IMG/VR virus record: IMGVR_UViG_3300032116_000144
Reading direction: 5' to 3' (one strand)
Origin: a virus
Length of the DNA: 64,000 nt
Below the pieces are notes generated by a model. That model was given only the letters and a program-made list of their open reading frames with translations, had not been told where the DNA came from and did not search any database. A program made the position numbers and the translations under genes. Shown here in pieces: positions 1-63,703 of this stretch (its first letter is position 1; each line of letters starts with the position of its first letter).

Positions 1-1
1 T

Positions 2-931: not shown

Positions 932-1268
932 TTATACTTATAGTCAGAAAGTTTTAGTTGATATTAATATTTTAAAATGGTCTTTAGAAAAAGATGATTC
1001 TTTACAAGTTATTAAAAAAATTAGCTTAGAGAAAGATAGTCTTATAGCAAAAAAAGATACTATAATTTTAACTCAAGATAAAATTATTAAAAATTATAGA
1101 TTAGATAGTGTTATTTATAATAAAATAATCACAAACAAAGACAGTATTCAATCTAATAGTAATAAGATAGTAGATATTAAAAAATCAGAAAATAAAGAAC
1201 TTAAACGACAAAATAAGTTATTAAAAATTATTAGTCCTGTACTTATTGTAATTGCTTTATTACTATGA
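894..1268 (+). CDS. Secreted/anchored coiled-coil protein (signal peptide plus C-terminal hydrophobic tail)
   Basis: N-terminal MKKIIFLLLLISNYTYSQ signal-like segment and C-terminal ISPVLIVIALLL. Embedded in/overlapping the previous ORF, as in spanin pairs. Confidence 0.35.
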   Translation: MKKIIFLLLLISNYTYSQKVLVDINILKWSLEKDDSLQVIKKISLEKDSLIAKKDTIILTQDKIIKNYRLDSVIYNKIITNKDSIQSNSNKIVDIKKSENKELKRQNKLLKIISPVLIVIALLL

Positions 1269-2381: not shown

Positions 2382-3159
2382 ACTTACTTCTGTTTCTACT
2401 ATTTTAAACAAAGTACAAAGAACATTTAGACCACCTGATTCAAGTTGGATTGGTGATGCTATTGAGGATATTGGTTTAGCTATTCAAGCTATTGGTTATC
2501 ATGCTGGATTTGAACATAAACAAACAGAACCACCTTATATTAAAGTAACTAATAATAGAGCAAAAGTTCCGTGTCATGTAGAGCGTATTAAAGTAATAGA
2601 ACAACTGTTACCTGATGCTTTTTCAGAAAGAAATCTACTTAATCCCGACGGCACTACTCCTTTTCCTCAAGTAGAATATAATCCTGACTGTACTTATCGT
2701 GGTGTAAAAATGTTTTTAGGTTCTGATCAAACAGGATATGGATTTGCAGAAGACAATCCAAGGACAACAGGTATTTCTCCTGGTGCTCCTTATTATAATT
2801 TAGATGGAGACTATATTTATACATCATTTACAGAAGGATTGATTAAATTACATTATGTAGGTTTTGCCTTAGATAAAAATGGTTATCCTCGTATTCTTGA
2901 TGATGCTGATTATAAAATGGCAGTTGAGTGGTATGTAGTTTATAATATGCTTTTAAAAGGATTTAAACACCCTGATCTTTCTTGGAAAGATGCATATCAA
3001 ATGTGGGAAACTTATAGACTTCGTGCAGAAAATGCTCCTAAAATGCCTAGCATTGATGCAGCCGAAAGATTTAGAAATACTTGGAGTCGATTTGCAATAG
3101 GTAATGAGTGGGGTCAAGAGTTTTTTATGAATTTAGAACAACCTTCAAATATTGAATAA
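2365..3159 (+). CDS. Hypothetical virion structural protein
   Basis: 264 aa. Stop TAA overlaps the ATG of the 1264-aa gene (TAATG). Confidence 0.5.
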   Translation: MPHIHKLTSVSTILNKVQRTFRPPDSSWIGDAIEDIGLAIQAIGYHAGFEHKQTEPPYIKVTNNRAKVPCHVERIKVIEQLLPDAFSERNLLNPDGTTPFPQVEYNPDCTYRGVKMFLGSDQTGYGFAEDNPRTTGISPGAPYYNLDGDYIYTSFTEGLIKLHYVGFALDKNGYPRILDDADYKMAVEWYVVYNMLLKGFKHPDLSWKDAYQMWETYRLRAENAPKMPSIDAAERFRNTWSRFAIGNEWGQEFFMNLEQPSNIE

Positions 3160-6100
3160 TGTTACCCGATAAAGGATTATATCAAGATAGTAACGAGTTT
3201 AATCAACCAAAAGGAACTTGGATTGATGCACGTAATATTTTAAAAGATAAGAAAAAACGTGCTATTACATCCGATCTAGGTACTGTTGTAACTGCAACAG
3301 GTTATCCATTTGCAACAGCAAAACCTATTGGAACAACTGTATTTCCTGATGGTTCTTATGTTGTTTATTCTGATGGAATCAATGGTGGTCAAGACAGATT
3401 AGGTGTTGTAGAAACTAATGGAGTTTATTCTGATATTATTATAGATAATTTACTAAATTTTAGTCAAAACTATCCTATTAGATCAAGTGAATTTGATTAC
3501 AATTTTTTAAAACAACGTATAATATCTTGGACAGATAAAAATAATGTAGCAAGAATTGCTAATATTGATAATTTAGGTTTTGCTCTTACTGTTGGAAAAG
3601 CTTTTATAACGGCCACAGACTTAAACAAATTAAACCTGTTTCCTTCTTTTAAAAGCCCAAACATAGTTTCTACAATATTAAACAGTGGTGGAAGCATAAA
3701 AGCAGGACACTATACGTTTGCAATTAAATATAAAAATATAGATGGAACTATTACAAATTATAGTCCATTTCAAAGCTCTGTATATGTTGTTGAAGATATT
3801 ACAGGTAATGTTTCATTATATGACGGTACTCCTCCTGGTTCTTTTACTGGTAAATCTATTCAAATTCAATTAACTGGTTTAGATACATCATATAATAGTT
3901 TTGTTTTAGTAGCTATTAGTACTATCAATGGTGTTAAAACAGCTTTTGAAATTAAAGAAGAAATTATCATTGGACCAAATATGACGATTACTTATATTGG
4001 TTCAGAAACACCAGTTACTTTATCTTTAGAAGAAGTATTAACTTCAAAACCTATTTATACAAAAGTTGGAGCAATGGCTCAACTTCATAATGTACTATAT
4101 CTTGCAGATTTAGAAACACAAGAAGATTTTAATTTTCAAGAAGTAGCTAATCAAATAAAAATTTATTATAATAGCACAATTACAAGTGCAAATAATTTAA
4201 ATGCACAAAACTTACCTACTTTTGGACATAAAGAAGTTTATGCTTTTTATATAGTATTTGTATTAAATAATGGTTCTTTATCAAAAGCATATCATATTCC
4301 TGGTAGACCAGTTATTCCCGGAGAACCCGATCCTTTAGCTAATATTACTGTAGGTGGTATTGCAGCTAAAAGATACCAAATAAGAGATACAACTAATCAA
4401 AGCGATACTACTTATACTACTGTTCTTACTCCAGCCGGAACTACTATAAGTCCTAACCAGTCTTTTTACTCAAATATGGGTTATTGGGAGAATGAAAATG
4501 AAGAGTATCCTCCTAATTGGCCTGGTGGTTTAGGTGGTCAACGAGTAAGACATCACGTATTTCCTAGTTATCAAGAATGTAGAACTAGACATTACAATAG
4601 TAATCCCGAATATTTAAAATCTCAATTAGATATTTTAGGTATTGACACGTATATACCTGCAATTCCTGTTGAAATGCAAGGTAAATTTTCAGGTTATTTT
4701 ATTTGTTATGCTAAAAAAGATTATGAAGATTGTATTAATTATGGATTAGATTTATTACAATTTAGTGCTAAAAATCCAACAGTAACGGATAATATAGAGT
4801 GGGATACCGCATATAATAATGAGTCATCTTATGATGGTACACGTGTTCAATCTATTGAGTTTAATAGTATTAGGTCACACATAAGAGATTTACTTAAAGA
4901 TAAACCACAATTATCTACTTCTCAATTATACCTTAGATTAGAAGCAAGGTATAGATATTTTGGAAGCAGAGATTCAAGAGGTGATGTAGTTTCTCCAGAT
5001 AATAGTGGTTTTATATATCTCTTAGATTACATAAATAGACCTATAAAAGTTCCTAATGCTGTTTCTGGAGTTAAAAGAGAGTTTCCTGATCATGTTATGA
5101 TTAATACTCTTAGTACTTTTCCAGTAACCGAATTTAGATATTTAGCAAATGGTGTATTAGACGGCAATAAATATAATTTACGAAGTGGTGAATCTATCTA
5201 TTTAAAAAGTACATTATATGAAAGAATGAATGAAGGTAACCCTCCAAATTTTAGTTTTAAACGTATTAACTATGATACTAAATTGGGTATTACTTTTATT
5301 CCAACTGGTTTAATACAAGGTAATGAACCTACTCCAACAGACTTTATTGAAGAGACGTACTTATATTCTTTATGTCAAGTAAAGTCTAATGTTCATAGTT
5401 TATACGATCAACAAATTTTAACAATTTGTTCTCCTTTATTAGATGGTACAGTAGCTCCACCACTATATACTAAAAATCATATTGGTTACGGTGATAGATT
5501 TATTGGACCTATTACAAAAATGCACGTAGGTAGTACTAGCGCTAGACCAAGTGATATAACTAATAATAAAGCTAGAGCAATGACAATAAGGTATCATATT
5601 TGTGAAAGTAGGTACAATACTAGATTAAGATATGAGGTAGATGGAAATGAAAATACAAAATATTATCCAAAAACTAATGCTTCTAATTTTTATCTAAAGT
5701 CAGACGATAGAAGAATACAATTTAATTTTGGAAGTGATACTTACGATACATCAGGTTTTAAAAGTGATTATAAAGAAACTAATTATATTAATCAAGCATT
5801 AATATATAATCCTAATAAAGTTAATCAGGTAACTAATAAATTTCCGTTTAGAGTTATTCGTAGTGGTGTAGCTGGCACTAATTTTACAGGATTAAATTCA
5901 TGGAAAACATTTTTATCTAATGATTTTTATGATAAGAATAGAAATAGAGGAGAAATTGTTAATCTTGCAGTATTAGATGATGTATTGTTAATTCATCATA
6001 GATATGGTTTATTTAGGACTATTGGAGCAAATAGACTTAGTTTTGATTCTACAGAAGTATTTTTAGGTGCTGGCGATATATTTTCACAAGAACCAAAAGA

Positions 6101-6953
6101 ACCTATTCCTTCTAGGTTAGGTTATTTAGGAGTACAAAATATATTTGGTTGTTGTTCTTTTTTAGGTGGATATAGTTGGTTAGATCAAAATACAGGAAGA
6201 GTATTTATAATTGGACCAAATGGTGTTCAGGAAATATCTAATTTTGGAATGTTTAATTTCTTTAGAGATAATTGCTTAATAGATAATACATTTCCAGATA
6301 ACCCCATTACAGGTCAAGGTATTATGACTTGTTATGATCCTATGTTTAAAAGATTAATATTCAGTAAAAAATCTAATACTAATCCTTTTACTATTTCTTT
6401 CTCTTTGTCCGATCAACAGTGGGTAGGGTATCACGATTATACTCCTGATTATATGTTTTTTAACAATAAGACTTTCTTTGGATTTAAAGATAATAAGATA
6501 CATCAATTTAATGTAGAAGGAACTATCTGTAAGTATTTTGGTAATAGTGTTCAACCATCCTATATTGATTTGGTATTTAATGATTATCAACAAGATGATA
6601 AAATATTCTTTAATACATTTTGGACTAGTGAAATGTTTGATAGTAATAACCAGTTAATAAGAGATAAAACTATTTCTCATATACAACTAGAAACAAATTA
6701 TCAACAAACAGGAGAAATTGTAATACAACCTCATAGTGATTTTAATAATCCTGGAAATACTAGAGCAGCGCATAATACATGGAACTTTAATAAAATGAAG
6801 GATGCAAATGCAGACGTGTATAAAAAGAAACCATTAGTAGGTGTATATGCTAAAGTAAGATTTAAGTACGATAATGCACCTAACTTGGATTTAACACAAA
6901 ATTCATTATATTTATACGATTTTGGTGTAAAGATACGTAAAGCTGAATTATAA
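3159..6953 (+). CDS. Large virion protein (tail / host-interaction candidate)
   Basis: 1264 aa, N/T/S/G-rich beta-type composition typical of tail fibre/baseplate proteins. Translationally coupled to flanking genes. Confidence 0.55.
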   Translation: MLPDKGLYQDSNEFNQPKGTWIDARNILKDKKKRAITSDLGTVVTATGYPFATAKPIGTTVFPDGSYVVYSDGINGGQDRLGVVETNGVYSDIIIDNLLNFSQNYPIRSSEFDYNFLKQRIISWTDKNNVARIANIDNLGFALTVGKAFITATDLNKLNLFPSFKSPNIVSTILNSGGSIKAGHYTFAIKYKNIDGTITNYSPFQSSVYVVEDITGNVSLYDGTPPGSFTGKSIQIQLTGLDTSYNSFVLVAISTINGVKTAFEIKEEIIIGPNMTITYIGSETPVTLSLEEVLTSKPIYTKVGAMAQLHNVLYLADLETQEDFNFQEVANQIKIYYNSTITSANNLNAQNLPTFGHKEVYAFYIVFVLNNGSLSKAYHIPGRPVIPGEPDPLANITVGGIAAKRYQIRDTTNQSDTTYTTVLTPAGTTISPNQSFYSNMGYWENENEEYPPNWPGGLGGQRVRHHVFPSYQECRTRHYNSNPEYLKSQLDILGIDTYIPAIPVEMQGKFSGYFICYAKKDYEDCINYGLDLLQFSAKNPTVTDNIEWDTAYNNESSYDGTRVQSIEFNSIRSHIRDLLKDKPQLSTSQLYLRLEARYRYFGSRDSRGDVVSPDNSGFIYLLDYINRPIKVPNAVSGVKREFPDHVMINTLSTFPVTEFRYLANGVLDGNKYNLRSGESIYLKSTLYERMNEGNPPNFSFKRINYDTKLGITFIPTGLIQGNEPTPTDFIEETYLYSLCQVKSNVHSLYDQQILTICSPLLDGTVAPPLYTKNHIGYGDRFIGPITKMHVGSTSARPSDITNNKARAMTIRYHICESRYNTRLRYEVDGNENTKYYPKTNASNFYLKSDDRRIQFNFGSDTYDTSGFKSDYKETNYINQALIYNPNKVNQVTNKFPFRVIRSGVAGTNFTGLNSWKTFLSNDFYDKNRNRGEIVNLAVLDDVLLIHHRYGLFRTIGANRLSFDSTEVFLGAGDIFSQEPKEPIPSRLGYLGVQNIFGCCSFLGGYSWLDQNTGRVFIIGPNGVQEISNFGMFNFFRDNCLIDNTFPDNPITGQGIMTCYDPMFKRLIFSKKSNTNPFTISFSLSDQQWVGYHDYTPDYMFFNNKTFFGFKDNKIHQFNVEGTICKYFGNSVQPSYIDLVFNDYQQDDKIFFNTFWTSEMFDSNNQLIRDKTISHIQLETNYQQTGEIVIQPHSDFNNPGNTRAAHNTWNFNKMKDANADVYKKKPLVGVYAKVRFKYDNAPNLDLTQNSLYLYDFGVKIRKAEL

Positions 6954-9038
6954 ATGAAACTTAAAAAATATAAGTTTGGTGATTATCTAAACGCTGAGAC
7001 TGCTCCTTTTGCAGGTATGGCAGGTAATCTTGTTGATGTTTTAGATCCAGGAAATGAATTTGGTGTTAGAAGTAATCTAGCGGCAGGGGCTAGTGGTGTT
7101 CTTAAAGGCGCTAGTGCAGGTATGGTAGCTGGCCCTTGGGGTGCATTAGCAGGGGGTGTAATTGGTGGTTTAACATCTGTTTTTGGAAACGAGAAAGCAA
7201 AAAAAGAGGAAAGAAGAATTAGACAAGAAAGACTTGAACGTGCAACATCACTAATTAAAAATCAATCTCAACAAGTACTTAGTACTTTTCCTTCTCAAGG
7301 AATAATGACAGCTAAATATGGTACTTATTTACCAATGCGTCCTGCCGGAGGTTATTTACCTTATCCTACTGATGATTCAGAAGTAAAACAACTTTCATCT
7401 AATGCTGCTGTTTATGAAGGAGATACTCACGCAAATGGTGGTATTCCCATTGATACTAATCAGGATAATCAAGCAGATATAGAAATTGAAGATGGAGAAG
7501 TTATAAAAGATAACATGGTATTATCTAATAGACTTAAACCTTCTAAAGAGGTATTAGAACAATTAAAAGGTTTAGGTGTTAATATTAAGTCAGATGATAC
7601 TTATGCTTCATTAGCAGAAAGATATGCTAAGAAAAAAGGAGAATATGAAACTAATCTTAAATCAACAAGATTAGGAGAGGCGGGAACAGCAAAATTAATG
7701 TTAGAACGATTAAATAGTGCTGTTGATACATTATTTCAAGACCAAGAATTTCAGAAAATAAATAAAAATATATCTAACGATAAAATGCGTTTTGGTGGTT
7801 ATCTTCGTAAAATGACAGAAGGTGGAACTACTGAACCCGGTAAACCTAAAATTGTAAAAGGTCAAGAAAGTATTTATAATTATTTTACAAGTAAAGAACC
7901 TAAAGAAAAAGGTTTTGTGCAGGATAGAGGATGGGTTACTAGAGAAGAATATAATGCTTGGAAAAAAGCATGGCAAGAAAATCAAGTACCATGGAATACT
8001 CCATTACAAGGTAATCAAAATTTATTTTGGGAAGGTTTTGGTGTGAATAAAGTAAAAGATGCATTTGATTCTGATCCAAATATTTCTCGTATTCACATTG
8101 GTAAGTTTGATGGTGATGCTATCAATAAATGGAAATATCCACAAGGTGCGCCTGCGAACTACGTGCCATTTACTAATGATAATGCAGCTATTATTGAAAT
8201 GGAGATGATGACACCCGTTACTAAAAATAAACAAACGACAGAAAAGAGTAGCAAAGTAAAAGAAAGTCAGGTATATCCTACAAACTTTGGTGCTATATCA
8301 GGAGTTTCTGGTGGAAGAGGAGCATTTAAACCCAGTGGTGCAACTAAAGCATATGGAATGTCCTATGCTAAAGGTGGTATGTTACCTAAATATAAATTTG
8401 GAGATATTTTAGAAGCTTTACAAGGTAATACAGGTTTACTTGCTACAGGAATTGGAACTTTAGCTAATCAAGCACAGATTAATAAATTAGAAACAGAGTT
8501 TACTCCTGATGTTGCTCCTGCTCCTGTTTATAATTTTACCAATAGGATGCCTTACTTGAGAGATCAAGTATTTGGTGCTTATAGAACAGCAACACAAGGA
8601 CTACGTGGAAGTGGAGCGCAAGATAACCAAGCATTACAATCTAATCTTTTTGCTAAAAGCTTAGAAAGTTTAAATCGAGCAAGTCTTGATGAATTTGGTA
8701 GAGAAGATCAATTTAAAGCTAGATTTAATGATATGTCTAATAGAACTAATATGTTCAATACATCAGTAACAAATCAAGCTAGGTTAGAATCAATGAATAA
8801 TCGTAATCAAAGACGTGCATTAACTCAACAAAATATTGACGCTGGATTACGTAGTATTATGGGTAATCAAGCAATGAAAGATTCTCAACAATTAGATTTT
8901 ATGAAAAACTTTATGACTACTTTTAAAGAAGGTGATACTGGAGTTTTTCAAAGATGGGCAGATGAAAATCTAGATGATAGAATGTTGCGTAAAATATTTG
9001 GTAATTACTATAAACGTTCACGTAAACCTATTGGATAA
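6954..9038 (+). CDS. Internal virion / ejection protein candidate with glycine-zipper membrane segment
   Basis: 694 aa. N-terminal AAGASGVLKGASAGMVAGPWGALAGGVIGGLTSVFG (GxxxG-type glycine zipper), then a long charged region. The start follows the preceding stop directly. Confidence 0.5.
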   Translation: MKLKKYKFGDYLNAETAPFAGMAGNLVDVLDPGNEFGVRSNLAAGASGVLKGASAGMVAGPWGALAGGVIGGLTSVFGNEKAKKEERRIRQERLERATSLIKNQSQQVLSTFPSQGIMTAKYGTYLPMRPAGGYLPYPTDDSEVKQLSSNAAVYEGDTHANGGIPIDTNQDNQADIEIEDGEVIKDNMVLSNRLKPSKEVLEQLKGLGVNIKSDDTYASLAERYAKKKGEYETNLKSTRLGEAGTAKLMLERLNSAVDTLFQDQEFQKINKNISNDKMRFGGYLRKMTEGGTTEPGKPKIVKGQESIYNYFTSKEPKEKGFVQDRGWVTREEYNAWKKAWQENQVPWNTPLQGNQNLFWEGFGVNKVKDAFDSDPNISRIHIGKFDGDAINKWKYPQGAPANYVPFTNDNAAIIEMEMMTPVTKNKQTTEKSSKVKESQVYPTNFGAISGVSGGRGAFKPSGATKAYGMSYAKGGMLPKYKFGDILEALQGNTGLLATGIGTLANQAQINKLETEFTPDVAPAPVYNFTNRMPYLRDQVFGAYRTATQGLRGSGAQDNQALQSNLFAKSLESLNRASLDEFGREDQFKARFNDMSNRTNMFNTSVTNQARLESMNNRNQRRALTQQNIDAGLRSIMGNQAMKDSQQLDFMKNFMTTFKEGDTGVFQRWADENLDDRMLRKIFGNYYKRSRKPIG

Positions 9039-51109: not shown

Positions 51110-51207
51110 AAAAATGTACTTTAGAAAATTAAATAAAAAGGATCACTTGGTAGTTCCGTACACCCGCTATCTGATTAAAGAGAAATAGCAAAATCTCTAA
51201 CTAGTCG

Positions 51208-51292
51208 TACCATTGAGAGGAATCGAACCTCCACGTTCTTAACGAACAACAGATTTTAAGTCTGTCTTGTCTACCAGTTCCAACACAATGGC
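51208..51292 (-). tRNA. tRNA-Leu (anticodon UAA), type II with long variable arm
   Basis: Reverse complement gives acceptor GCCATTG/CAATGGT. D-loop AACTGGTAGA. Anticodon stem ACAGA/TCTGT with loop CTTAAAA (U33, UAA, A37). Variable hairpin GTTC-GTTAA-GAAC. T-arm GGAGG-TTCGATT-CCTCT. Discriminator A, no encoded CCA. Confidence 0.8.
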
Positions 51293-51311
51293 CCAGTGTT
51301 CAACTTATTAG

Positions 51312-51647
51312 TGGAGCAGAGGGGAATCGAACCCCTGTCCATAAATACTACATTATACAATTTATACAAGCTTTGGGGCTTCCCGATAGGAACACCTTCC
51401 ACCATCTATATTTGTTTAAGGTACATTATATAGAATTAAACCTGTTCAACTTAAACTAAGTGTTCTTTAAGCAGCTACACGTAGCTGAACACCTTCACTT
51501 TGTCCTACATTTACTCCTTGAGGAAACATAGGCACTACTTTTGCTTCTTTAGCAATCGTTGTTGTATGCGCATTTTCAGTAGGTACAACATACTTCCCTA
51601 CGCTTGATTATATAATATAACTATTCATGTCAAAACCAATCTGCCCC
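51312..51647 (-). ncRNA. ssrA: tmRNA (ssrA-like transfer-messenger RNA), about 336 nt
   Basis: 5' end GGGGCAGATTGGTTTTGACA resembles the canonical tmRNA 5' end GGGGCUGAUUCUGGAUUCGAC. 3' end GGACAGGGGTTCGATTCCCCTCTGCTCCA resembles the tmRNA 3' end (T-arm plus GCUCCA). 7-bp acceptor stem with G3:U70 (alanine identity). Internal reading frame ends GTA GCT GCT TAA (..VAA stop at 51468..51470), which sits in an 8-bp inverted repeat as in tmRNA helix 5. Confidence 0.75.
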
Positions 51648-54035: not shown

Positions 54036-54276
54036 GTTCTAATATTTCTGTTAATTCTGTAATATCTTGTTCTACTACTGGTGCAAAATGATCAGTAGCA
54101 TAGTAATCAATGGGTCTACCTTCTTCTAAGTTATAAAAATCTCTTGAAGTATTTTCATTACTAAAAGTTTTTTTCTCTAACACAGTATAATAACAATCTT
54201 TTTTAGGTATAAGACTAAAATCTGTTTTTTTACCGTCAAGAACTCTCCAATTATCATTAATACATACAACAATCAT
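54016..54276 (-). CDS. Small hypothetical protein
   Basis: 86 aa. Confidence 0.4.
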   Translation of the reverse strand: MIVVCINDNWRVLDGKKTDFSLIPKKDCYYTVLEKKTFSNENTSRDFYNLEEGRPIDYYATDHFAPVVEQDITELTEILEHEHICV

Positions 54277-54464
54277 AATTCATCTGTATTAATATCTTCA
54301 TACCAAGAATTTCTAATAAAGCGCATAGTACCACAAAGATATTTAATATATACCCCATCGAGTATATTACATGAACGATAAATCAAATTATTTCTATATG
54401 TAGTACTGTCTGAATGAAAATTATAATAAATAATGCTATTTGATTCCAATGAATATCCATTCAT
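54273..54464 (-). CDS. Small hypothetical protein
   Basis: 63 aa, first gene after the palindrome-rich intergenic region. Confidence 0.35.
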   Translation of the reverse strand: MNGYSLESNSIIYYNFHSDSTTYRNNLIYRSCNILDGVYIKYLCGTMRFIRNSWYEDINTDEL

Positions 54465-54481
54465 AAAAATTAATTTAATAA

Positions 54482-54513
54482 AACTACTAGAGGTTATTAC
54501 ACCTCTAGTAGTT
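54482..54513 (-). terminator. Perfect 13-bp stem-loop 18 nt upstream of the 54464 start codon (terminator/attenuator)
   Basis: aactactagaggt-tattac-acctctagtagtt, followed on the minus strand by TTTTATTAAATTAATTTTT. Confidence 0.55.
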
Positions 54514-54892
54514 AACTCTTAATGTGAGTAAGATCACTAAGATTTTACAACAAATATACGACTCGTTGTAGTACAAATTATTGATAAATAAATAGCTATA
54601 AACTTAGTTTATTTTTAGGTAAATAGCTATTGAATTAAGAATAATTTTAAGTCCAACAAACTATAAGAGAAAAATCTATATAGATTTTTCTTATCATAGT
54701 TTGACTAAGACTATTTTTTACAATAGATGTTGCTATCTCAAATAAAGGTTTGTTAAAAGTATGAATATGCAGAGTATCACATAATCTCGGGCCAGAGATT
54801 GTCCATAGTCTCAATACAAGAACTAATAATCTAACTTTATTTTATCTTACACTTACCATTGTATAAAATATAACAGCTTACTCCTGATTAAA

Positions 54893-55705
54893 TTAACCAA
54901 TTACTTTCTCTATTCTTTCAAATAAAGAACGATTAAAGGATTTATTTAATTTTTTTATAGTGTCAGTAAACATATGACACATAATAATATGCTTAATTAA
55001 CGTAGGATAATGAAATGTAGGTTCAAATAATCTCCATTCAGTAGTGGGTAAATGTCTAGCTACTATAATTTCAGTATTAGAAGAAACACCAATAAAAAGA
55101 GCCTGACTCCTTTTATCTCTACAAAATTTATATTTTGTATTGTTTTTCTCAATTTGTTTATAAATATATTTATTATACTTATAAATTTTTTTACAATGAT
55201 TAAAACATACTAAATTCCTAACTCTAAGATCACGAGTGTCTGTATCTTCATTAATACCTCTACACTTTTTAGTATCTGTCATATCAATATGAATATGTAG
55301 ACCACCATAAGTTAAATCAGGCCAAATATTTTCTTCTTTATTAAGTATACCAGTAAATTCTTTAAGAATATGAATATGATAAAATCCACGCACACTTACT
55401 CTTATTTCCGCTTGTTGTGCATAACTTACATCGTTTTTTGTACACTTATCTAATACAATTGGTTTAAATCGTAGTATCTTTTCGTATTTAGTATTTATGT
55501 TAGCTTGAAATAAGTTTAAAGAAGCAACTTTACCCGATGTAAACGCAGTATCAATTTCTACACCAACACGAGTAGGCCAAACAGTTTTAAGAAATGAAAT
55601 AATATATCCAGGATTATTACTATTAGCAAGTAATCGCCTAATTTTACTAGGCTCATGTAAAATAGTATTAATTACCTGTTCTTGAACATATGTTAATTTA
55701 GACAT
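54893..55705 (-). CDS. Hypothetical protein
   Basis: 270 aa, contains GGLHIHIDMTD. No confident family assignment. Confidence 0.5.
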   Translation of the reverse strand: MSKLTYVQEQVINTILHEPSKIRRLLANSNNPGYIISFLKTVWPTRVGVEIDTAFTSGKVASLNLFQANINTKYEKILRFKPIVLDKCTKNDVSYAQQAEIRVSVRGFYHIHILKEFTGILNKEENIWPDLTYGGLHIHIDMTDTKKCRGINEDTDTRDLRVRNLVCFNHCKKIYKYNKYIYKQIEKNNTKYKFCRDKRSQALFIGVSSNTEIIVARHLPTTEWRLFEPTFHYPTLIKHIIMCHMFTDTIKKLNKSFNRSLFERIEKVIG

Positions 55706-55748
55706 AAAAAATGGTGTGAGTTTTATTTCTCACACCATTAGTTAATAA

Positions 55749-55979
55749 TTAAATTTTATTAATTGGTGGTTCAGGAGCAAAACTTCCAAGAATATTATTA
55801 CTTACATTTTTAGCAACTGGAACAACCGGAGCAGCTACAACAACAGGAGCAATTTTCTTTGCAGTAGCTTTCTTTTTTACTATTTTCTTAGCAGCAACTT
55901 TCTTTTTTGCTGTCTTTTTAGATACTTTTTTTGCTGTTTTCTTTTTAGGAGCAGCTTTTTTTGCAGCTTTTTTAGCCAT
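55749..55979 (-). CDS. Histone H1-like lysine/alanine-rich DNA-binding protein
   Basis: 76 aa. First 50 residues are AKK/KKA repeats (MAKKAAKKAAPKKKTAKKVSKKTAKKKVAAKKIVKKKATAKK), followed by a Pro/Val-rich tail. Confidence 0.55.
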   Translation of the reverse strand: MAKKAAKKAAPKKKTAKKVSKKTAKKKVAAKKIVKKKATAKKIAPVVVAAPVVPVAKNVSNNILGSFAPEPPINKI

Positions 55980-56033
55980 TGTTTTTTGATTTGCTTAATT
56001 AACAATTATTTTAGTAATCTATAATAAAGGTGG

Positions 56034-56270
56034 TTAATCACCACTCGTTAGTTTTTTAATTTCTAAATACAATCTATATCCCATTGGTATAACAAAACCA
56101 ATAATAAAAAGATAAGCAAGACATATTACGAATATAATAAATCCTATCTTTCCAACAATAGTCATATCATAATATGTACTATTATCTTTTATTAATATAT
56201 CAGTTAATGCTAAAAAAAATGTGGTAAGCATTACTCCAAAAACAAGCTTTACAACTTTTTCATTATTCAT
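56034..56270 (-). CDS. Small membrane protein
   Basis: 78 aa, two TM helices. Confidence 0.4.
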   Translation of the reverse strand: MNNEKVVKLVFGVMLTTFFLALTDILIKDNSTYYDMTIVGKIGFIIFVICLAYLFIIGFVIPMGYRLYLEIKKLTSGD

Positions 56271-56485
56271 TTAAAATTGTTTTTATATTGATAACTTCCA
56301 TTTTTAACAATCTTAAACCTAGTATATAATGTAGTAGGTCTAAGAAATTCAATTTTTTTCTTTTCACTATATGCAATAGCTTTAGAAACATTTGTCTTAT
56401 GTGTAGCAACTTTTACAAATGTACCTCTTATATGATCTCGTCTAAATTCAACGAGATCATATAAGGTAGGATTTTTATTCATCAT
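56267..56485 (-). CDS. Small hypothetical protein
   Basis: 72 aa. Confidence 0.35.
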   Translation of the reverse strand: MMNKNPTLYDLVEFRRDHIRGTFVKVATHKTNVSKAIAYSEKKKIEFLRPTTLYTRFKIVKNGSYQYKNNFK

Positions 56486-56675
56486 TTTGATTTATAATAA
56501 CAAATAATAGTGCTACTAACATTGCCCAAGAGAATACACTATATTTAACAGATTGATAAAATTCTTGTTCTGTTAATTTATGTGTATGCATATATCTAAG
56601 ATAACAAAGAAGAGAAACTGCTAAAAGAACACCAATTAAATATAGTGACAAAGTAACTAATATTATTTGCCACAT
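56475..56675 (-). CDS. Small membrane protein
   Basis: 66 aa, two TM helices. Confidence 0.4.
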   Translation of the reverse strand: MWQIILVTLSLYLIGVLLAVSLLCYLRYMHTHKLTEQEFYQSVKYSVFSWAMLVALLFVIINQNDE

Positions 56676-56823
56676 ATAATTAAAAGTAAAAATGATGTAT
56701 CATAGCACCAAAAAACAATAACATAACAATTAAAAAGATAACTACAAATTGATTTACACTACTTGCAAATGATTTTTTCATAAAATGTTTGTTTAAAGAA
56801 TTAATATTTTTGTTTAGCACCAA

Positions 56824-57648
56824 TTAGGTATATTTTAACATTAAATTTACTTTATCAATTATCAGTTGACCAAGTATTTCTCTGCAAATATCTGCTGTTT
56901 GTTTTTGATTATTTTTATAAGCAGCAGCATAAGCAGCAGGAGGATCATTAACATTAGCATAAGCAGCAGCATAAGCAGTATCAGCAGCATAAGTAGCAGC
57001 AGCAGTATCATCAACATTAGCAGCAGCATCAGCAGTATAAGCAGCAGCAGTAGCAACAGCATAAGCAGCATAAGCAGCAGGATCACTAGCAACATAAGCA
57101 GGAGGATCATCAACATTAGCAGCAACATAAGCAGCATAAGCAGCATAAGCACCATAAGCAGCAGCAGAAGCAGCATCATAAGTAGATCTTGCAAAAGGTA
57201 CTAAGTCTTCTAATGTCATTTCCTCTACCAGACCAAATCTCTCTGCTGCATTAACCGCATCAATACTTCTTTGATCTTTCATTAAATGAATTACTGTTTT
57301 AGCACATCTAGCTTTAGCTAACGTTAGAGGTTTAATAGGTAAGTCTAATTTTTTAGCTAACCATAATAACCAGTCACCACGTTCTACTTTAGCTATTGTT
57401 TCTTCAATAGTAAAAGTAGATGCCCATTTTTGTGCTTCTTGACAAGCACGAAAGTCTTTAAGTAAATTCTGAAATGTTTTCATAGTCATCTTTTTAGGTA
57501 ATATAATGATTTGTTTTTCTAATTCAGCAGCTATCTTTTCTTCAAGCTTTTGCAATGCAGCTTGAGTAGCTTTATTGCTAATACTTTCTTTTGAGAAGGA
57601 GCACACTACCGACTTAGCCATCAATTTCTCAACATTACTTTTTGACAT
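56824..57648 (-). CDS. Protein with C-terminal Ala/Tyr-rich tandem repeats
   Basis: 274 aa. Helical N-terminal 170 aa. Then AAYGAYAAYAAYVAANVDDPPAYVASDPAAYAAYAVATAAAYTADAAANVDDTAAATYAADTAYAAAYANVNDPPAAYAAAY, encoded by GCAGCA/TAAGCAGCA 9-nt periodic DNA (about 56925..57180). Confidence 0.55.
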   Translation of the reverse strand: MSKSNVEKLMAKSVVCSFSKESISNKATQAALQKLEEKIAAELEKQIIILPKKMTMKTFQNLLKDFRACQEAQKWASTFTIEETIAKVERGDWLLWLAKKLDLPIKPLTLAKARCAKTVIHLMKDQRSIDAVNAAERFGLVEEMTLEDLVPFARSTYDAASAAAYGAYAAYAAYVAANVDDPPAYVASDPAAYAAYAVATAAAYTADAAANVDDTAAATYAADTAYAAAYANVNDPPAAYAAAYKNNQKQTADICREILGQLIIDKVNLMLKYT

Positions 57649-57873: not shown

Positions 57874-58227
57874 TTAAGGTATTCTTAAATTTCTTCTTAT
57901 TGCTTCTTTAACATATTTTTTATAGTGTAAATGCTTTAATGCTTTTTTACCTATTAAAAAATCTTCTTCATACCAAAAACTATCAGCATCAGAACCCCCA
58001 CCTTTTCTAATTCTAATTCCTTCTTTAGCTCTTTTCTGAATATATTTAATAGTATTAATAAGATGATTATCATCCATTTTAGGATAATCTTTTGATACAC
58101 CTCTAATATCTATAATTTTACCATCTTTACATTTATGTAATAATGGTTTTAGAACTTTAGGTGGAAAGTTTTCAAGAAACTCATCCCCCATTTGTTGTAC
58201 TCTATAATAATCTGCCATATCTCCCAT
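57874..58227 (-). CDS. Hypothetical protein
   Basis: 117 aa, basic. Confidence 0.45.
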   Translation of the reverse strand: MGDMADYYRVQQMGDEFLENFPPKVLKPLLHKCKDGKIIDIRGVSKDYPKMDDNHLINTIKYIQKRAKEGIRIRKGGGSDADSFWYEEDFLIGKKALKHLHYKKYVKEAIRRNLRIP

Positions 58228-59754
58228 AATCTTTAATGTTTAAAATTAATAAGAATAGTACTAATAAGTTGACTACTAGCTTTGAGTTTTAGTACGTAGC
58301 TAAACACTACAATTTCCTCTATATACATTCACTCTACTACTCTTAAATCTTTAATGTTTAAAATAAAACTACTAACTAATACAGACCTTATAGAGCAACA
58401 ATATACAATATACATTCGTATGCGACATATATCTTGTTATTCTATTCTTGTTAGTAGTTTTAATGTTAATAACTCTTCTGTCCAATTTTCTAGTTGGAAT
58501 AGTTTATTCTTACATAGCATGGTAATTTAATACCTACATTACTTGTCAATTCAAGTAGAACGTTCAGAACTTACTATCTCTACAACAAACATTAACTGCT
58601 GGAACAGAACTATAACTCGGTACTTACGCCAAATCTCCGATAGTTTTTGTTTTGGAGATATATAGTTGTTTGTCTTCAAGCAGAAGAGTTAAATCTTTAT
58701 ATCAATCTCCAAGTAATACCATTACTAAAAGTTTGATACATACTTCCATTGTTGTTATTGGTATCTATCTTTATCGTCAACATATTTTAAGTATGTTAGC
58801 ACCCTTTAATTACTAGGCACAATTTAACGTAGCTAATATATTAAGTAGGGTCATGTAGTTGATTGTATGGACGAGACAATCTGCTATTTAACTACTTGCT
58901 GAGAACTCATTTGTGTTGGGTATGTTCTTCCTTTTGGGAAGTTTCCTTTACTATCCTTTCTCAAGGGAACAACACATCTAGCTTTACAGCATTAATAGAT
59001 ATCGGTTTTACGATGCTCTATTAACATCCTATTAATTCAGGATTAGTATCTTTATGTGAATTAAGCTTTTTGACTTATTGACGTTGCATTGCTACACAAA
59101 CCTATTCACAAAGGATCAATGTTTAGCCTATTATCTAGATTATTTTTATTTTACCAGATTTAAGGAAGATAAAGAACAGTTTATAAGTTGGTTACTACAA
59201 TTCAGCAGACATTTGTCGTAGGATTAGATACTCTAATTTACCTAGCTCTCCATTAGAAGAATGACTTCTATCTTTAGTTCTAAATCTACCTGTAGATCAT
59301 TATGTCTTTTTCATAGTTTTATTTCATAATTATCTCAATCAGTTTTTAAAGTTGGTAGTGTGTTAGAGTCGTTTAACGTCTCGCTATATCACCAGCTACT
59401 CTTTCTCTACCAACCTTGTTCTCAAAATAACACTTACTACAAAAAGCTCTATGATAACACGACATACTTTTCATACAATATAATTTATCCTTGACACCAA
59501 ATGTGGTCTGCTTCAAATGCTTCTTCCTCTCTAAACCAGAAGTATTTAATAGTGTCTTTTGAAATCCTAACTTTTGTTATGAAGTCATCTTCACCCATTA
59601 TCGCAACGCAAACAGAACTCATTTTATCAAACCAATTTATTTCTACTCTTCGTAGGACGGTTTATCTGTTAGTCGTTTTTAAATTTTAAAACCTTATTTC
59701 ATCATTCTAATCAAGTTCGTGCTATTTCCGGCCACTATCTGTTAAAGTCCGTTT

Positions 59755-59958
59755 TTATATTTTTTCAAATACATCAATTAATTCATTCAGTTCTTTAAAT
59801 AACTTACTATGATTTTCATTAATCATGTAATTATTTACTGTATCTATATCAACTTTACAAGTATCTTGCATTAGTTGATACATATATTCAGTAGACTTAT
59901 CTTCATGATCACATAATTGGTGTACTGCTGCAAGTTTAAGCTTAGTTATGTATTTCAT
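59755..59958 (-). CDS. Small hypothetical protein
   Basis: 67 aa, the only ORF >60 aa within the 58.2-60.4 kb ORF-poor region. Confidence 0.3.
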   Translation of the reverse strand: MKYITKLKLAAVHQLCDHEDKSTEYMYQLMQDTCKVDIDTVNNYMINENHSKLFKELNELIDVFEKI

Positions 59959-60412
59959 ATTTTAGGTCTTTCACCGTTATGAGCTACGCACTCTTTACAA
60001 CCTTAGAGCATCCTTCTGGGCAAGAATGTTTGTATGAGCGTTTCATAGGATAGTTTAGTGAATAAAAAATATTAAAAAAGATGGCTAACCCCGATTACAG
60101 CCAGCACCACACGGGAGGGGGCAGCGTGTTACATGGTAGGCTACAAACGTATTACTACTTGCCCTGTGTTGCCTCTCATCACCAACACTTCCACTTGTCG
60201 GCCATTGTTCTGCCAATCTCATTTGATTGGTGTCTGTACCAGAACTACACTGCTCGGCCACTGGTTTTCCCGCCATCTTTTTTAATATTTTCAGTTTGTA
60301 TTTCAAATATAGTTCATCTCTTAATAATCGGCACTGGTTATATTCTTGTTCGTTATGCACAATTAAGCAACGCATCAAACAGCTATAAGTGATTTTACAA
60401 GTTATTGTAAGT

Positions 60413-60948: not shown

Positions 60949-62079
60949 TTATTTCTTTTTAAATTGTTCAAACCATTCTTTAGCATCTTGATAATTAAAA
61001 ATAGAATTATGTGTGTTTAATTCAGATTCTCTTTCATATAAAAGATTGAGAACTTCTTTCTCACTATACATTCTTTCTTGTTGCTTATCTCTTTCTTCCA
61101 ATGCTTTTTCACAACTTGCCAAAAGTGTTTTAGTGTGTCTTAATTCTATTTCCATTAAACCATAATGTTCTTGTTGCCATTTAGCACAATATTCTGCTAC
61201 CCTTCTTGCTGCTGATTCTATATTTCCCCAAACCCATCCCATATCAGAAATTATTCTTTTAGCAGCTTCTTCAAGTGACTCTTGTTTAGTAATCTCAATA
61301 AAATGTCCTTCACTACCACATTGAGCACCACAAGTAGTACATAAATAATATTTATTACAGTCACCACATTTAATATATTCTTTTTTAGGTTCTTCTTTTG
61401 GAATCGTAGTTTCTTGTTTAGACTCTTTTATAGCTATAAAAGTTTTACCAAATCCTGTTACAGCTTCTATTCCTCCTCGTGCTTTGTTTGATCTCCACAA
61501 ATTAAATGATTTTTGTTGTCTTTCAAATCTTACAGGATCAATATTATTTAAAGGTAAAATATTTCCTTGATAATTTAAAGAATGACCTTCTTCATCAAAT
61601 CCTGTGTGAGCATTTATATCTTTAGGTTCTTCTTTTGGAATGATTATTTTGTACTGATAAGAAGTTGCTTCATCAATCATCCCATTCTTTTTATAACCTT
61701 CTCTATAAACCTCAACCTCCTCACAACTTGGATTCTTAACAAACCATTCTAAAAACTCATCATCAATAGCTTGTACACCATATTTGATTAATCCTTGGTC
61801 TGTTGTTAGGATGATTTTTTTAAAATACAATGGATTGTATTGGTCATTCCATTCAACACTTTCTAAATCATAGCCTACTTGGTGTAAATGATTGCGATTA
61901 TCCTTAATGTCTATAAACCAATCTTGGCTTGATGTGATTTTATCATCAGAAGTGATGTAGATGTGTTGGGCAGTATTGCTACCAATTAAAACATCCTTAT
62001 CTAATTCTATTCTTCTTCTTAAATTATTAACCCACAACGTACTTGGTTTGTCCGTTAGTAATACGTGTATGTTTTTCAT
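60949..62079 (-). CDS. Hypothetical protein with Cys4 zinc ribbon and helicase-like Walker A fragment
   Basis: 376 aa. CGDCNKYYLCTTCGAQC. GIEAVTGFGKTFIAI resembles the N-terminus of the SF2 helicase at 42351..43847. Internal IPKEEPK repeat. Confidence 0.5.
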   Translation of the reverse strand: MKNIHVLLTDKPSTLWVNNLRRRIELDKDVLIGSNTAQHIYITSDDKITSSQDWFIDIKDNRNHLHQVGYDLESVEWNDQYNPLYFKKIILTTDQGLIKYGVQAIDDEFLEWFVKNPSCEEVEVYREGYKKNGMIDEATSYQYKIIIPKEEPKDINAHTGFDEEGHSLNYQGNILPLNNIDPVRFERQQKSFNLWRSNKARGGIEAVTGFGKTFIAIKESKQETTIPKEEPKKEYIKCGDCNKYYLCTTCGAQCGSEGHFIEITKQESLEEAAKRIISDMGWVWGNIESAARRVAEYCAKWQQEHYGLMEIELRHTKTLLASCEKALEERDKQQERMYSEKEVLNLLYERESELNTHNSIFNYQDAKEWFEQFKKK

Positions 62080-62098
62080 CTTATTTGTTTTTTATTTG

Positions 62099-62247
62099 TA
62101 GTCAGAACAGGATTTGAACCTGTATTTAATGTATATACTTAAATCTTATAGTTGCATCATTCAACAATGCTTTACCTTATGGTTAAGGTATCAGGAGTCA
62201 ATCCCTGATTCTTCTATAAGTGCGTCTACCAATTCCGCCACCTGACT
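62099..62247 (-). ncRNA. tRNA-like gene (149 nt) with about 60-nt insertion in the anticodon arm
   Basis: Reverse complement: acceptor AGTCAGG / TCTGACT (7 bp, one G:U) with discriminator A. D-arm GCGGAATTGGTAGACGC (type II Leu/Ser-like). Extended anticodon stem CTTATAG / CTATAAG enclosing hairpins ATCAGG-GATTGACT-CCTGAT and TACCTTA-ACCA-TAAGGTA. Variable hairpin ATTTAA-GTATATAC-ATTAAAT. T-arm ACAGG-TTCAAAT-CCTGT. Confidence 0.5.
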
Positions 62248-62308
62248 AAAAATCTAATTCTACGCTTACTACTTGTCTTGTCCTATGAATTAGTAACAGT
62301 CTTCATTG

Positions 62309-62457
62309 TAGTCAGGACAGGATTCGAACCTGTTTTGTAATAAAGGGTCTCACGACTGTTATTTCTAACCTACATTTCTGTAGCGTGGTCTGGTTTGAGT
62401 AGGCCCTAATCTGTTCTCATTTATATTACAATGGCGTACCAATTCCGCCACCTGACT
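62309..62457 (-). ncRNA. tRNA-like gene (149 nt) with about 90-nt insertion in the anticodon loop
   Basis: Acceptor AGTCAGG / TCCTGACT (7 perfect bp). D-arm GGCG-GAATTGGTA-CGCC. Anticodon stem TTGTAA / TTACAA separated by about 85 nt. T-arm CAGG-TTCGAAT-CCTG. First 21 nt identical to the 62099..62247 element. Confidence 0.5.
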
Positions 62458-62599
62458 ATTTGCTTGTCTTTCCAAGCTGTCACCACTTTGATAATTCCTC
62501 CAATGTAACTCTTCAGAAAAGCCATAGATGGTTCACTATGAGCAGCAATCAAGACAGGATTCAGAATCTGTCTTAGTTAATGAAAAACACTAACTAATA

Positions 62600-62836
62600 T
62601 TATTTCCTTGTATAGTAAATAATATAAGCAAAAAGAATAAGAAAAGAACAACACAACCATACAATACCCATAGCAATACTAATATACCACCAAGCTATTG
62701 TAGATACAACAATCAAAAATAATGTATGAAACATAGCACTACCCGCTTCTGTATCTTTACCAGTAGGTGTATTTACAAGAAAAAGATAATTAATAAGTAC
62801 TGATACAGTAGCAATAAGTGCAATAGCTAGTATCAT
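62600..62836 (-). CDS. Small membrane protein
   Basis: 78 aa, three hydrophobic helices. Confidence 0.4.
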   Translation of the reverse strand: MILAIALIATVSVLINYLFLVNTPTGKDTEAGSAMFHTLFLIVVSTIAWWYISIAMGIVWLCCSFLILFAYIIYYTRK

Positions 62837-62870
62837 ACAGCTAGTTGTTTAGTAATACGTGCTGGTTTTT

Positions 62871-63077
62871 TCATTTTCCGCGATTGTGACGACCAGTACG
62901 TTGTATGTATTCTTTACTACATGATGACTTATCTCGTAAAACACTAACTTGTGTGTTGCGAGATAAAACGCGGTTCGTTGCGCCTACATACTTACTTTTG
63001 GAAGATAATCCGTTGTACTTATCAGAGCATACCCAGTATGCATCAGAAGGTAAATGATATTCGGAAGATTTAGTCAT
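62871..63077 (-). CDS. Small basic hypothetical protein
   Basis: 68 aa, locally GC-richer, C-terminal RTGRHNRGK. Confidence 0.35.
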   Translation of the reverse strand: MTKSSEYHLPSDAYWVCSDKYNGLSSKSKYVGATNRVLSRNTQVSVLRDKSSCSKEYIQRTGRHNRGK

Positions 63078-63439
63078 AAGGTTATATTATTAGAAAGTGA
63101 AACAATGGTAAGTTAGAAAAGAAATGTGAAAGTAACTGTGGTATCAGGTACCAACATGAGTAAATCCATGATTAGTATATCAAAATTAGCAATTCTGATA
63201 ACACTAATGGATAAGAGTATGCGAAGATGCTTCATTACAGTAGTTGTTTTTGAAGTATCTTCGTCATATTCCGCAGTTTCAACAGCTCATTTACATTATA
63301 ATATGGTGCGCGTAGCATTGCTTCTATCTTATTAATGTTGAGTTGTACTTGCTCTTTGATCTGGTTTTGTGTTAGCTGTGTCATATGCTATATATGAATA
63401 GTATGCTATGTCATGATGAGAAACAGAGAAGAGAGGTGC

Positions 63440-63703
63440 TTACGCACCTACTCTCAAACTCAACCAAGTCATGTCCTGTTGACGAACTTCACCATTTTCA
63501 TCAGCAAGCTCAACAGTGCGCGTGATCTCTTGGAACATTGAAGGATCAAGATCAAATTCAGCACCAATTAAGGCTGCTTCTGATGTCTTAATGTAGCGTC
63601 TTGTCTGTACTGTACCAAGACCAGGAACAGATTTGCTTACTGCAAGAGTAGTTACAAAACCACCATTGCTGCTTTGTGTGCTTTTAATTACAGATGCTTT
63701 CAC
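63440..63703 (-). CDS. Hypothetical protein
   Basis: 87 aa, GC-richer than the genome average. Confidence 0.4.
   Translation of the reverse strand: MKASVIKSTQSSNGGFVTTLAVSKSVPGLGTVQTRRYIKTSEAALIGAEFDLDPSMFQEITRTVELADENGEVRQQDMTWLSLRVGA

Follow-up and report, generated by a model that had tools for sequence, protein, structure and literature searches.

A phage-encoded one-piece tmRNA with a long conserved tag reading frame in a crAss-like phage genome

The tmRNA gene and its structural conservation

We studied a transfer-messenger RNA (tmRNA) gene located in a 64,000-nucleotide stretch of viral DNA from the IMG/VR virus record IMGVR_UViG_3300032116_000144 (hereafter the window). An initial annotation, made from the letters of the sequence, had proposed a phage-encoded tmRNA on the minus strand of the window next to a tRNA-Leu gene, and this observation was confirmed. 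ARAGORN called a tmRNA at 51311-51647(-), and the Rfam tmRNA model RF00023 matched 51309-51647(-) over the full model (positions 1-374) with 102.6 bits (E 5.6e-39), well over the gathering score of 47. ARAGORN gave two RNA genes in the 64-kb window, the tmRNA and the tRNA-Leu, and Rfam agreed. The window copy is ~337 nt long and in one piece. The termini on which the proposal had leaned are present in the sequence (5' end GGGGCAGATTGGTTTTGACA, 3' end GGACAGGGGTTCGATTCCCCTCTGCTCCA), and so are the 7-bp acceptor stem GGGGCAG/CTGCTCC with its G3.U70 pair and an internal frame ending GCT GCT TAA. The gene does not encode the 3' CCA; the sequence continues C-T-A (ACUA). Judged by the covariance-model match, the covarying tRNA-like domain, the stems of the first pseudoknot (PK1), the resume codon at nt 95 and the conserved open frame (see below), the RNA is a tmRNA. 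Very probably this is a functional one-piece tmRNA gene of a ~90 kb crAss-like phage, whose product would perform trans-translation with host factors during infection.

Related tmRNAs were present in 11 further distinct phage sequences, or 12 with the window (loci are designated by L and a number). They were gathered as DNA around homologues of the phage family-A DNA polymerase (PolA) and with a pattern made from the invariant PK1 core. In all seven relatives with the polymerase visible the tmRNA lay upstream of it, with polymerases 46-77% identical (L003/L004, 77%; L005 and L006, 61%; L007 and L013, 58%; L008, 51%; L009, 46%). Most of the seven carried it at the same position relative to a conserved open reading frame (ORF) of ~200 aa, that of L009 being further upstream; the L013 tmRNA was found by Rfam only. 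The PK1-core pattern yielded four more members among viral and metagenome contigs (L017, L020, L021 and L023) and 0 matches in 185,579 species-representative bacterial and archaeal genomes, and no deposited phage shared the PK1/resume core, even at E up to 10. Identity of the tmRNAs within the family was 56-89%. The sole polymerase relative among viral contigs, L002, starts inside the polymerase and stops short of the tmRNA side, and the neighbouring 203-aa protein had no relatives in viral contigs. An exact 20-mer of the tmRNA 5' end occurred in IMG/VR at a single locus (L001), a chance match inside coding sequence in which neither ARAGORN nor Rfam found a tmRNA.

The structure was assessed in the 12-sequence family alignment over 43 pairs, and the controls were partners slid by 1-3 columns and 500 shuffles. 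Standard pairs filled 94.7% of the cells as compared with 37-49% in the slid controls, 22 of the 43 pairs presented changes on both sides, and the observed values were reached by 0/500 shuffles. The acceptor stem was 96.4% paired, with both-side changes in 4/7 pairs, and appeared in the minimum free energy fold of 10/11 members; the T-arm was paired in 100% of cells, with compensatory changes in 3/5 pairs; and helix 2, which links the tRNA-like domain with the part containing the pseudoknot and the ORF, had changed on both sides in 13/21 pairs. Compensatory changes lend good support to these three elements, whereas the two PK1 stems, 100% paired, have one covarying pair each (AU/GC; UA/CG/GU). 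The PK1 core is nearly invariant within the family, and the resume codon follows PK1 by 10 nt. G3.U70 was kept in 12/12 members and the 3' end UCCA was invariant; the alanine identity elements (G3.U70 and discriminator A) are in place as far as the sequence tells, and charging by alanyl-tRNA synthetase (AlaRS) would be expected. Because the helices covary and G3.U70 is kept in every member, a chance or decaying tmRNA-like sequence is ruled out. The positions of these and other features are given in Table 1.

The tag reading frame and the region 3' of it

A resume codon had been expected about 90 nt from the 5' end, and the Rfam alignment placed it at the GCU at nt 95; ARAGORN picked the homologous start in L005-L009, L021 and L023. 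From this codon the frame runs for 28 codons and ends in RVAA, the last two residues being Ala-Ala in all members. ARAGORN gave the window a tag of 13 residues, VGQSEGVQLRVAA, which begins at a codon inside the frame and was discarded; the 28-codon frame was preferred from the Rfam alignment and the homologous starts of the relatives. Tags in the relatives have 21-37 codons (for example AKEANVVPMYPQGVNVLEGNSVQLRVAA, ANEARIVPMFAQGVNVDEVAMKIAA and AKLALVASLGGVLGNRQDAIVSRKLVPAMEAELEMAA), and within the family they are conserved at the amino-acid level (AKEAKVVPMF.., ..[RK][VI]AA). L020 and L017 have tags of a different, longer type, with 33-37 codons (...LGGVLGNRQDA...MEAEL..AA).

The tag frame was open in 12/12 members, the other frames each carrying 1-5 stops, and the differences in tag length among the members were whole codons. 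Synonymous changes made up 55% of the single-base codon differences vs 24% expected, and pairwise differences at codon positions 1/2/3 of the N-terminal 16 codons were 32/23/86. Second in-frame stops were seen in several members. On this evidence the tag frame is evolving like translated sequence.

Two RNA structures overlap the frame. The hairpin at codons 9-16 kept 8-10 of its 10 pairs in six members, and L007 carries a compensatory change from CUC/GAG to CAC/GUG that affects two third codon positions, both synonymous. The Rfam alignment assigns this hairpin to model helix 5; the out-of-frame UAA that this placement leaves in the loop was rejected as the tag stop, because a UAG eight codons before it closes that frame. 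Where the tag ends, the initial annotation had put the stop codon inside a helix formed by GCAGCUAC and GUAGCUGC. A helix does exist there, formed instead by CAGCUAC/GUAGCUG, and the stop lies outside this hairpin, 2 nt 3' of it, in the internal loop of an outer helix. In the inner hairpin 7 bases are complementary across a 2-nt gap, which in effect makes 6 bp and a CGUG loop; the outer helix showed a compensatory change in L003 and L005 (CUGUUC/GAACAG). In the MKIAA-group members, the last tag codons form the hairpin GCAAU-GAAA-AUUGC instead. Constraints at the RNA level and at the coding level both act on the tag; the open frame and the whole-codon insertions and deletions would be hard to explain without translation. 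We also noted the decamer GAAGGUGUUC twice in the window tmRNA, at 51487-51496 (nt ~152-161, at the end of the tag frame) and at 51389-51398 (nt ~250-259, just past the heptamer described below). Either copy could pair with the GAACAC 3' of the stop, and relatives presented a compensatory change for the first pairing only.

The initial annotation had suggested inspection of the fold for pseudoknots PK1-PK4. Both PK1 stems were found, and past the tag one pseudoknot was supported, in part of the family only. The Rfam alignment of the PK2-PK4 region had low posterior probability and deletions. The score of the H-type pseudoknot located there was matched by 1/200 dinucleotide shuffles in the window and by 2/200 for the same knot in L003, and L021 has an equivalent pseudoknot of different sequence (11/200 shuffles); the idea of this knot as a family-wide feature preceding the heptamer UGGUGGA was dropped. 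The heptamer itself was present in 11/12 family members and in the tmRNA of Flavobacterium phage FpV4 (see below), and in 0/97 Bacteroidota tmRNAs; from this distribution it is a signature of the phage tmRNA lineage. UGGUGGA is the exact reverse complement of UCCACCA, the mature 3' end of tmRNA and tRNA-Ala. A switch in cis between the acceptor stem and a helix of UGGUGGA with the 3' end was 3-18 kcal/mol worse and is not favoured; since the 3' end is invariant, this pairing is beyond the reach of covariation.

Table 1 Features of the tmRNA gene and of its genomic surroundings (positions in the 64,000-nt window; nt, position in the tmRNA)
Feature	Position	Strand	Remarks
One-piece tmRNA gene	51312..51647	-	5' G = 51647, discriminator A = 51312; ARAGORN, Rfam RF00023, family covariation
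Acceptor stem, 5' strand GGGGCAG (nt 1-7)	51641..51647	-	Pairs with CUGCUCC 51313-51319; includes G3.U70
Helix 2, 5' strand (nt 19-46)	51602..51629	-	Pairs with 51340-51371 (nt 277-308)
Pseudoknot PK1 (nt 47-84)	51564..51601	-	Stem 1 GUAGG/CCUAC, stem 2 GUAUG/CAUAC
Tag reading frame, 28 codons	51467..51553	-	AKEAKVVPMFPQGVNVGQSEGVQLRVAA; resume GCU 51551-51553 (nt 95-97), stop UAA 51467-51469
Hairpin inside tag frame, codons 9-16	51507..51529	-	AUGUUUCCUC-AAG-GAGUAAAUGU; pairs kept in relatives
Helix around tag end	51460..51492	-	Outer GUGUUC/GAACAC, inner hairpin CAGCUAC/GUAGCUG; stop in internal loop
H-type pseudoknot (nt 207-243)	51405..51441	-	GUUUAA/UUAAAC interleaved with UCUAUAU/AUAUAGA; shuffle test
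Heptamer UGGUGGA (nt 244-250)	51398..51404	-	Immediately 3' of the H-type pseudoknot
T-arm AGGGG-UUCGAUU-CCCCU (nt 312-328)	51320..51336	-	tRNA-like domain
tRNA-Leu(UAA), type II	51207-51292	-	19 nt downstream of tmRNA; ARAGORN, Rfam RF00005 53 bits; CCA not encoded
Upstream ORF, 67 aa	51658..51861	-	Hydrophobic N-terminus; stop 10 nt before tmRNA 5' end
CrAss_Ring_2 (tail ring protein 2)	1265-1909	+	Pfam E 3.2e-18
CrAss_Ring_1 (tail ring protein 1)	2365-3159	+	Pfam E 2e-29
crAss_MUZ_C (muzzle protein C-terminal domain)	3159-6953	+	Pfam E 1.9e-09
crAss_CARG1 (cargo protein 1)	6954-9038	+	Pfam E 8.8e-08
ORF of 4,895 aa	11052-25739	+	EDFDID at residue 2982; without Pfam match

Phage genome, FpV4-like relatives and comparison with Bacteroidota tmRNAs

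The window has ~29% G+C and is organized in two opposed gene blocks. The viral origin given for this DNA is upheld by the Crassvirus virion domains and the giant ORF with a DFDxD motif of the plus strand together with the phage replication genes of the minus strand. DFDxD is a signature of crAss-like virion RNA polymerases (10.1101/2020.03.07.982082), and the EDFDID of the 4,895-aa ORF fits this catalytic motif; FpV4 has a counterpart of ~4,290 aa at the same position. The minus-strand block contains genes for MazG, thymidylate synthase, exonuclease VIII, a Toprim protein, an AAA_24 protein, DnaB, a helicase, a ligase and PolA, and the tmRNA lies 2.1 kb upstream of the latter. No integrase was found among the window ORFs scanned with PHROGs and Pfam. 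An identical polymerase occurs on the 90,119-bp NCBI contig JBKCYO010000194.1 (GCA_046315635.1), and its relatives are found on numerous contigs of 90-95 kb. Among deposited sequences, those most closely related to the structural proteins belong to uncultured crAss-like phages, Cellulophaga phage phi14:2, Bacteroides phage crAss002, the ~88 kb Flavobacterium psychrophilum phages and one cyanophage, and the gene order of both blocks is the same as in FpV4. By these comparisons the genome is that of an environmental crAss-like, FpV4-like phage of ~90 kb, an assignment that rests on the tail, cargo and giant-ORF genes, with capsid, portal and terminase outside the window. The tmRNA cofactor SmpB had no Pfam match in the window ORFs of at least 100 aa, and tblastn gave none in the window or the related loci with an approximate E. 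coli query that was used without a positive control; the negative is accordingly based on the Pfam scans.

The spacing of 19 nt between tmRNA and tRNA-Leu(UAA) is as had been claimed, and UUA is indeed the dominant Leu codon (61.6% of the 1,530 Leu codons in the window ORFs). The two genes are adjacent only in the window lineage, that is, in the window, its duplicates L011/L012 and L003/L004; the adjacency is real, yet it is no defining trait of the tmRNA family. The tmRNA is probably co-transcribed with the 67-aa ORF upstream, because the stop of this ORF precedes the tmRNA by only 10 nt. A scan for promoters and terminators near the tmRNA gave no signal over shuffles, and the relatives had no shared upstream motif.

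Other observations concern the surroundings of the gene. In L007 the tmRNA is followed directly by a LAGLIDADG homing endonuclease gene (7768-8181), at the place taken in the window by the tRNA-Leu; L013 encodes a 480-aa protein (5377-6819) with an animal haem peroxidase domain (PF03098), unusual for a phage; and L020 also has tRNA-Cys(GCA) and tRNA-Lys(UUU), at 758-830 and 5810-5882. A small ORF with weak or faint matches to PP-binding (acyl-carrier-like) domains lies upstream of the tmRNA region in four loci (L007, 3815-4099; L008, 4658-4924; L010, 6992-7228; L014, 4174-4446). Within the minus-strand block of the window, four stretches of 0.6-1.9 kb (54276-54893, 55705-56824, 58227-60081 and 62079-63440) are AT-rich and have no ORF of at least 80 aa and no Rfam match, and all three kinds of stop are frequent in every frame; small early genes or regulatory DNA may be located in them.

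The FpV4-like (Fipvunavirus) phages resemble the window phage in genome size (~88-92 kb), in the muzzle-like protein and giant virion protein and in the minus-strand replication block. FpV4 itself presented a tmRNA of 415 nt (Rfam, 58.2 bits) at NC_041872.1 81947-82361(-), equivalent to L147 31947-32361(-), which was missed by ARAGORN. It lies upstream of the polymerase in a gap free of annotated coding sequence; all 29 FpV4-like records (FpV4 and 28 others) contain the same 415 nt without a difference, and none of them annotates the gene. Its acceptor stem is GGGGGUG/CACCUCC with G3.U70, UGGUGGA is present, and the tag has 35 codons from GGA (GNTNNSVVSLEDNAQVEANMNMAFSLIREDVAVAA), the other frames being closed. 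As in the window, then, the gene is upstream of the polymerase and combines the heptamer with a long tag ending in VAA. In contrast, the FpV4 tmRNA belongs to a different sequence family, the global identity being 45-57%, about background; the RNA is longer, its PK1 sequence is different, and its resume codon GGA specifies Gly, as is the case in Bacteroidota hosts. At 43 nt upstream of the FpV4 tmRNA we noted a TAnnTTTG box of the Bacteroidota type (TAAGTTTG). In the complete FpV4 genome tblastn revealed no SmpB with the approximate E. coli query, again without a positive control. No literature joining FpV4 and tmRNA was found.

For the comparison with bacteria, the 5' motif GGGGNNGAYUGGUUUUGACA was searched and gave at least 120 loci in genomes, the taxonomic count being a sample; among the matches listed, ~75 of the 80 titled loci were Bacteroidota, mainly Flavobacteriaceae. 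The bacterial tmRNAs with this motif (among the matches listed, nearly all Bacteroidota) had a median length of 396 nt and 9-residue tags in 93/105 cases, mostly GENNYALAA. Bacteroidota tmRNAs share with that of the window the one-piece form, a full RF00023 match, G3.U70, discriminator A, T-arm, helix 2, PK1, a resume codon, the same 5' motif, a tag ending in Ala-Ala followed by the stop and the lack of an encoded CCA. They differ from it in several respects: the window tmRNA is shorter (~337 nt vs the median of 396 nt), with a PK2-PK4 region about half as long; its tag has 28 codons from Ala (GCU) vs 9 codons from Gly; and it is virus-encoded and contains UGGUGGA, with a PK1 core absent from species-representative genomes. 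Overall identity between the phage and Bacteroidota tmRNAs is ~50%, and the likeness is limited to ~20 nt of the 5' end and ~30 nt of the 3' end; the L021 tmRNA has 31 identical 3' nucleotides in common with Bacteroidota tmRNAs. The tRNA-like domain therefore looks adapted to Bacteroidota, and the remainder looks to have diverged within phages. Because the PK1 core is absent from the species genomes and the likeness is found only at the ends of the tRNA-like domain, the tmRNA does not appear to be a recent capture from a host.

Proposed function, alternatives and significance

We propose that the tmRNA would be transcribed with the minus-strand block of replication genes, its 5' end cut by host RNase P and its 3' end trimmed. 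Since CCA is not encoded, it would be added by the host CCA-adding enzyme, and host AlaRS would then charge the RNA with alanine. Host SmpB and EF-Tu would bring it to ribosomes stalled on broken or stop-less messengers, where translation would resume at the GCU and add Ala and the 28-residue tag AKEAKVVPMFPQGVNVGQSEGVQLRVAA; the ribosome would be released at the UAA, and the tagged product would probably pass to host proteases by way of the C-terminal ...RVAA. The likely benefit for the phage is that ribosomes would be kept available in infection, a time of increasing damage to messengers at which transcription by the host and its supply of tmRNA may break down; the tRNA-Leu(UAA) would help towards this by reading the Leu codon that dominates in the phage. 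The suggestion in the initial annotation that the virus manipulates ribosome rescue or tags nascent proteins seems reasonable in this light.

Several points weigh against a functional tmRNA gene of a crAss-like phage. The tag stop is separated from the 3' strand of helix 2 by 96 nt only, so that the PK2-PK4 region is short, and the pseudoknot finder gave the H-type knot no support in family members other than the window, L003 and L021. Accepted tmRNAs with reduced pseudoknot sets do exist. Part of the tag conservation stems from the RNA hairpins inside the frame. Within 10 kb of PolA, the relatives L010, L014, L015 and L016 lack a tmRNA, and for this reason the gene is dispensable for the clade. 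Around 26 kb of the source contig, at positions 1-5095 and 69096-90119 of the record, lie beyond the window and could hold a phage SmpB. Finally, NCBI binned contig JBKCYO010000194.1 with a Pseudanabaena sp. metagenome-assembled genome (MAG) and named its proteins accordingly, and the Leptolyngbya phage Lbo-JY46, a cyanophage, shares distant PolA and muzzle homologues. The Pseudanabaena label is probably a binning artefact. The host is most likely a member of Bacteroidota, preferred over the less likely cyanobacterial host because of the Crassvirus-type virion genes, the FpV4-like layout and the Bacteroidota-type 5' motif.

A more far-reaching reading is that the family of the window and the FpV4 tmRNA are two branches of an old phage-resident tmRNA lineage in Bacteroidota phages, in which the long tag and the heptamer give a phage-specific activity beyond rescue. 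The shared UGGUGGA, the long tags and the same genomic position suggested this reading, which we consider unlikely. If it were true, the phage-specific activity could mark rescued proteins for another fate or interfere with the 3' ends of host tmRNA or tRNA-Ala.

It is very improbable that the phage RNA acts mainly as a decoy or competitor, binding host SmpB, AlaRS or EF-Tu and so blocking the host tmRNA, a purpose of which could be to stop a host response dependent on trans-translation. The confinement of the Bacteroidota likeness to the ends of the tRNA-like domain, with the 31 identical nucleotides of L021, means that host factors should bind; no phage SmpB was found by Pfam in the window ORFs of at least 100 aa; and titration of SmpB has been suggested as the role of the molecule of mycobacteriophage DS6A, which consists of the tRNA-like domain only (PMC4131195). 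Against this, a tag frame would be superfluous in a pure decoy, whereas here it is open in every member, with whole-codon length changes and a synonymous excess; PK1 and the surroundings of the resume codon are conserved as well. A working tmRNA may nevertheless compete with that of the host as a side effect.

Very improbable too is a re-routing of rescued polypeptides, in which trans-translation would take place and the phage-specific tag would send the products to a different protease or adaptor, to slower degradation or to a phage factor. The amino-acid-level conservation of tags of 21-37 residues fits this alternative, as does their contrast with the 9-aa tags of 93/105 bacterial tmRNAs with the 5' motif (among the matches listed), and the FpV4 tag is also long. 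All members, however, end in Ala-Ala like ordinary degradation tags, which fits normal proteolysis; some of the tag conservation is explained by RNA hairpins; long tags occur in some bacteria too, which also counts against re-routing; and the contrast between host and phage tags is provisional, the host being presumed. A phage-specific role for the long tag is possible.

We give practically no credence to a host ssrA beside a prophage, or to an attP or imprecise-excision remnant in a temperate phage: ssrA is a common integration site, the 24-bp core of K1 mycobacteriophages matches the 3' end of host tmRNA (PMC3203893) and NCBI files the contig under a bacterial MAG, but the gene is full length rather than a 3' fragment and is surrounded by phage replication genes, the opposite arm carrying virion genes of crAss type; it shows covariation in a clade of phages on ~90 kb contigs, no integrase was found in the scanned ORFs, and its PK1 core has 0 matches in the 185,579 species genomes. 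The K1 attP cores resemble the window in that phage DNA matches tmRNA sequence, and they differ from it as ~24-bp 3' fragments beside an integrase (PMC3203893), the window having a complete gene that matches no sampled host and no integrase found. A decaying, non-functional, host-derived copy that is passively carried would agree with the four related phages without a tmRNA near PolA and with the reduced PK2-PK4 region, and can be set aside with like assurance, given the compensatory changes that keep the tRNA-like domain, helix 2 and PK1 (22/43 pairs), the tag frame open across relatives whose polymerases differ by up to ~50%, and the UGGUGGA in common with FpV4 and found in 0/97 Bacteroidota tmRNAs, which points to long residence in phages.

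Phage tmRNAs as such are already known. They were reported in 402 of 18,146 phage genomes (~2%), including two-piece forms in marine myophages (PMC9004378); in eight mycobacteriophages and Bacillus phage G, with the tRNA-like-domain-only copy of DS6A (PMC4131195; PMC1475703); in huge phages, some of them with SmpB (PMC7162821); and in 7/788 gut viral genomes (PMC12291355). Like the window phage, mycobacteriophages Bxz1, Cali, Catera and Wildcat, phage G, the huge phages and Melnitz are virulent phages with a complete ssrA, usually accompanied by tRNA genes and without evidence of integration (PMC4131195, PMC1475703, PMC7162821, PMC9004378). A role in rescue or tagging has been speculated for other phage tmRNAs (PMC9004378, PMC7162821), and the roles proposed, keeping translation going or tagging proteins, are those considered here. 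In contrast to the window's, these tmRNAs come from other groups of phages with other hosts (Actinobacteria, Bacillus, marine Proteobacteria); that of the Melnitz type consists of two pieces and has a glutamine riboswitch (PMC9004378), and the huge phages may also carry SmpB (PMC7162821). Literature searches on crAss-like or FpV4-like phages and tmRNA found no report of one in these phages. The window tmRNA is a well-supported further example of a phage tmRNA, notable mainly for its unusually long conserved tag.

What is new is a tmRNA family in ~90 kb crAss-like phages, a group not previously noted for tmRNA in the literature searched, together with comparative data suggesting that the tag is translated, under selection and sharply unlike the tag of the probable host phylum. 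ARAGORN missed the tmRNAs of L013, L017 and FpV4 and gave a short tag for the window; because it misses or mis-starts such genes, surveys with ARAGORN only may undercount phage tmRNAs. Phage tmRNAs have been catalogued for twenty years, and we know of no experimental test of their benefit to the phage reported in the phage-tmRNA literature examined. An unannotated tmRNA of this general type is present in the FpV4-like phages of Flavobacterium psychrophilum, which are relevant to aquaculture; since these phages are in culture, the function of a phage tmRNA could be tested in them directly.

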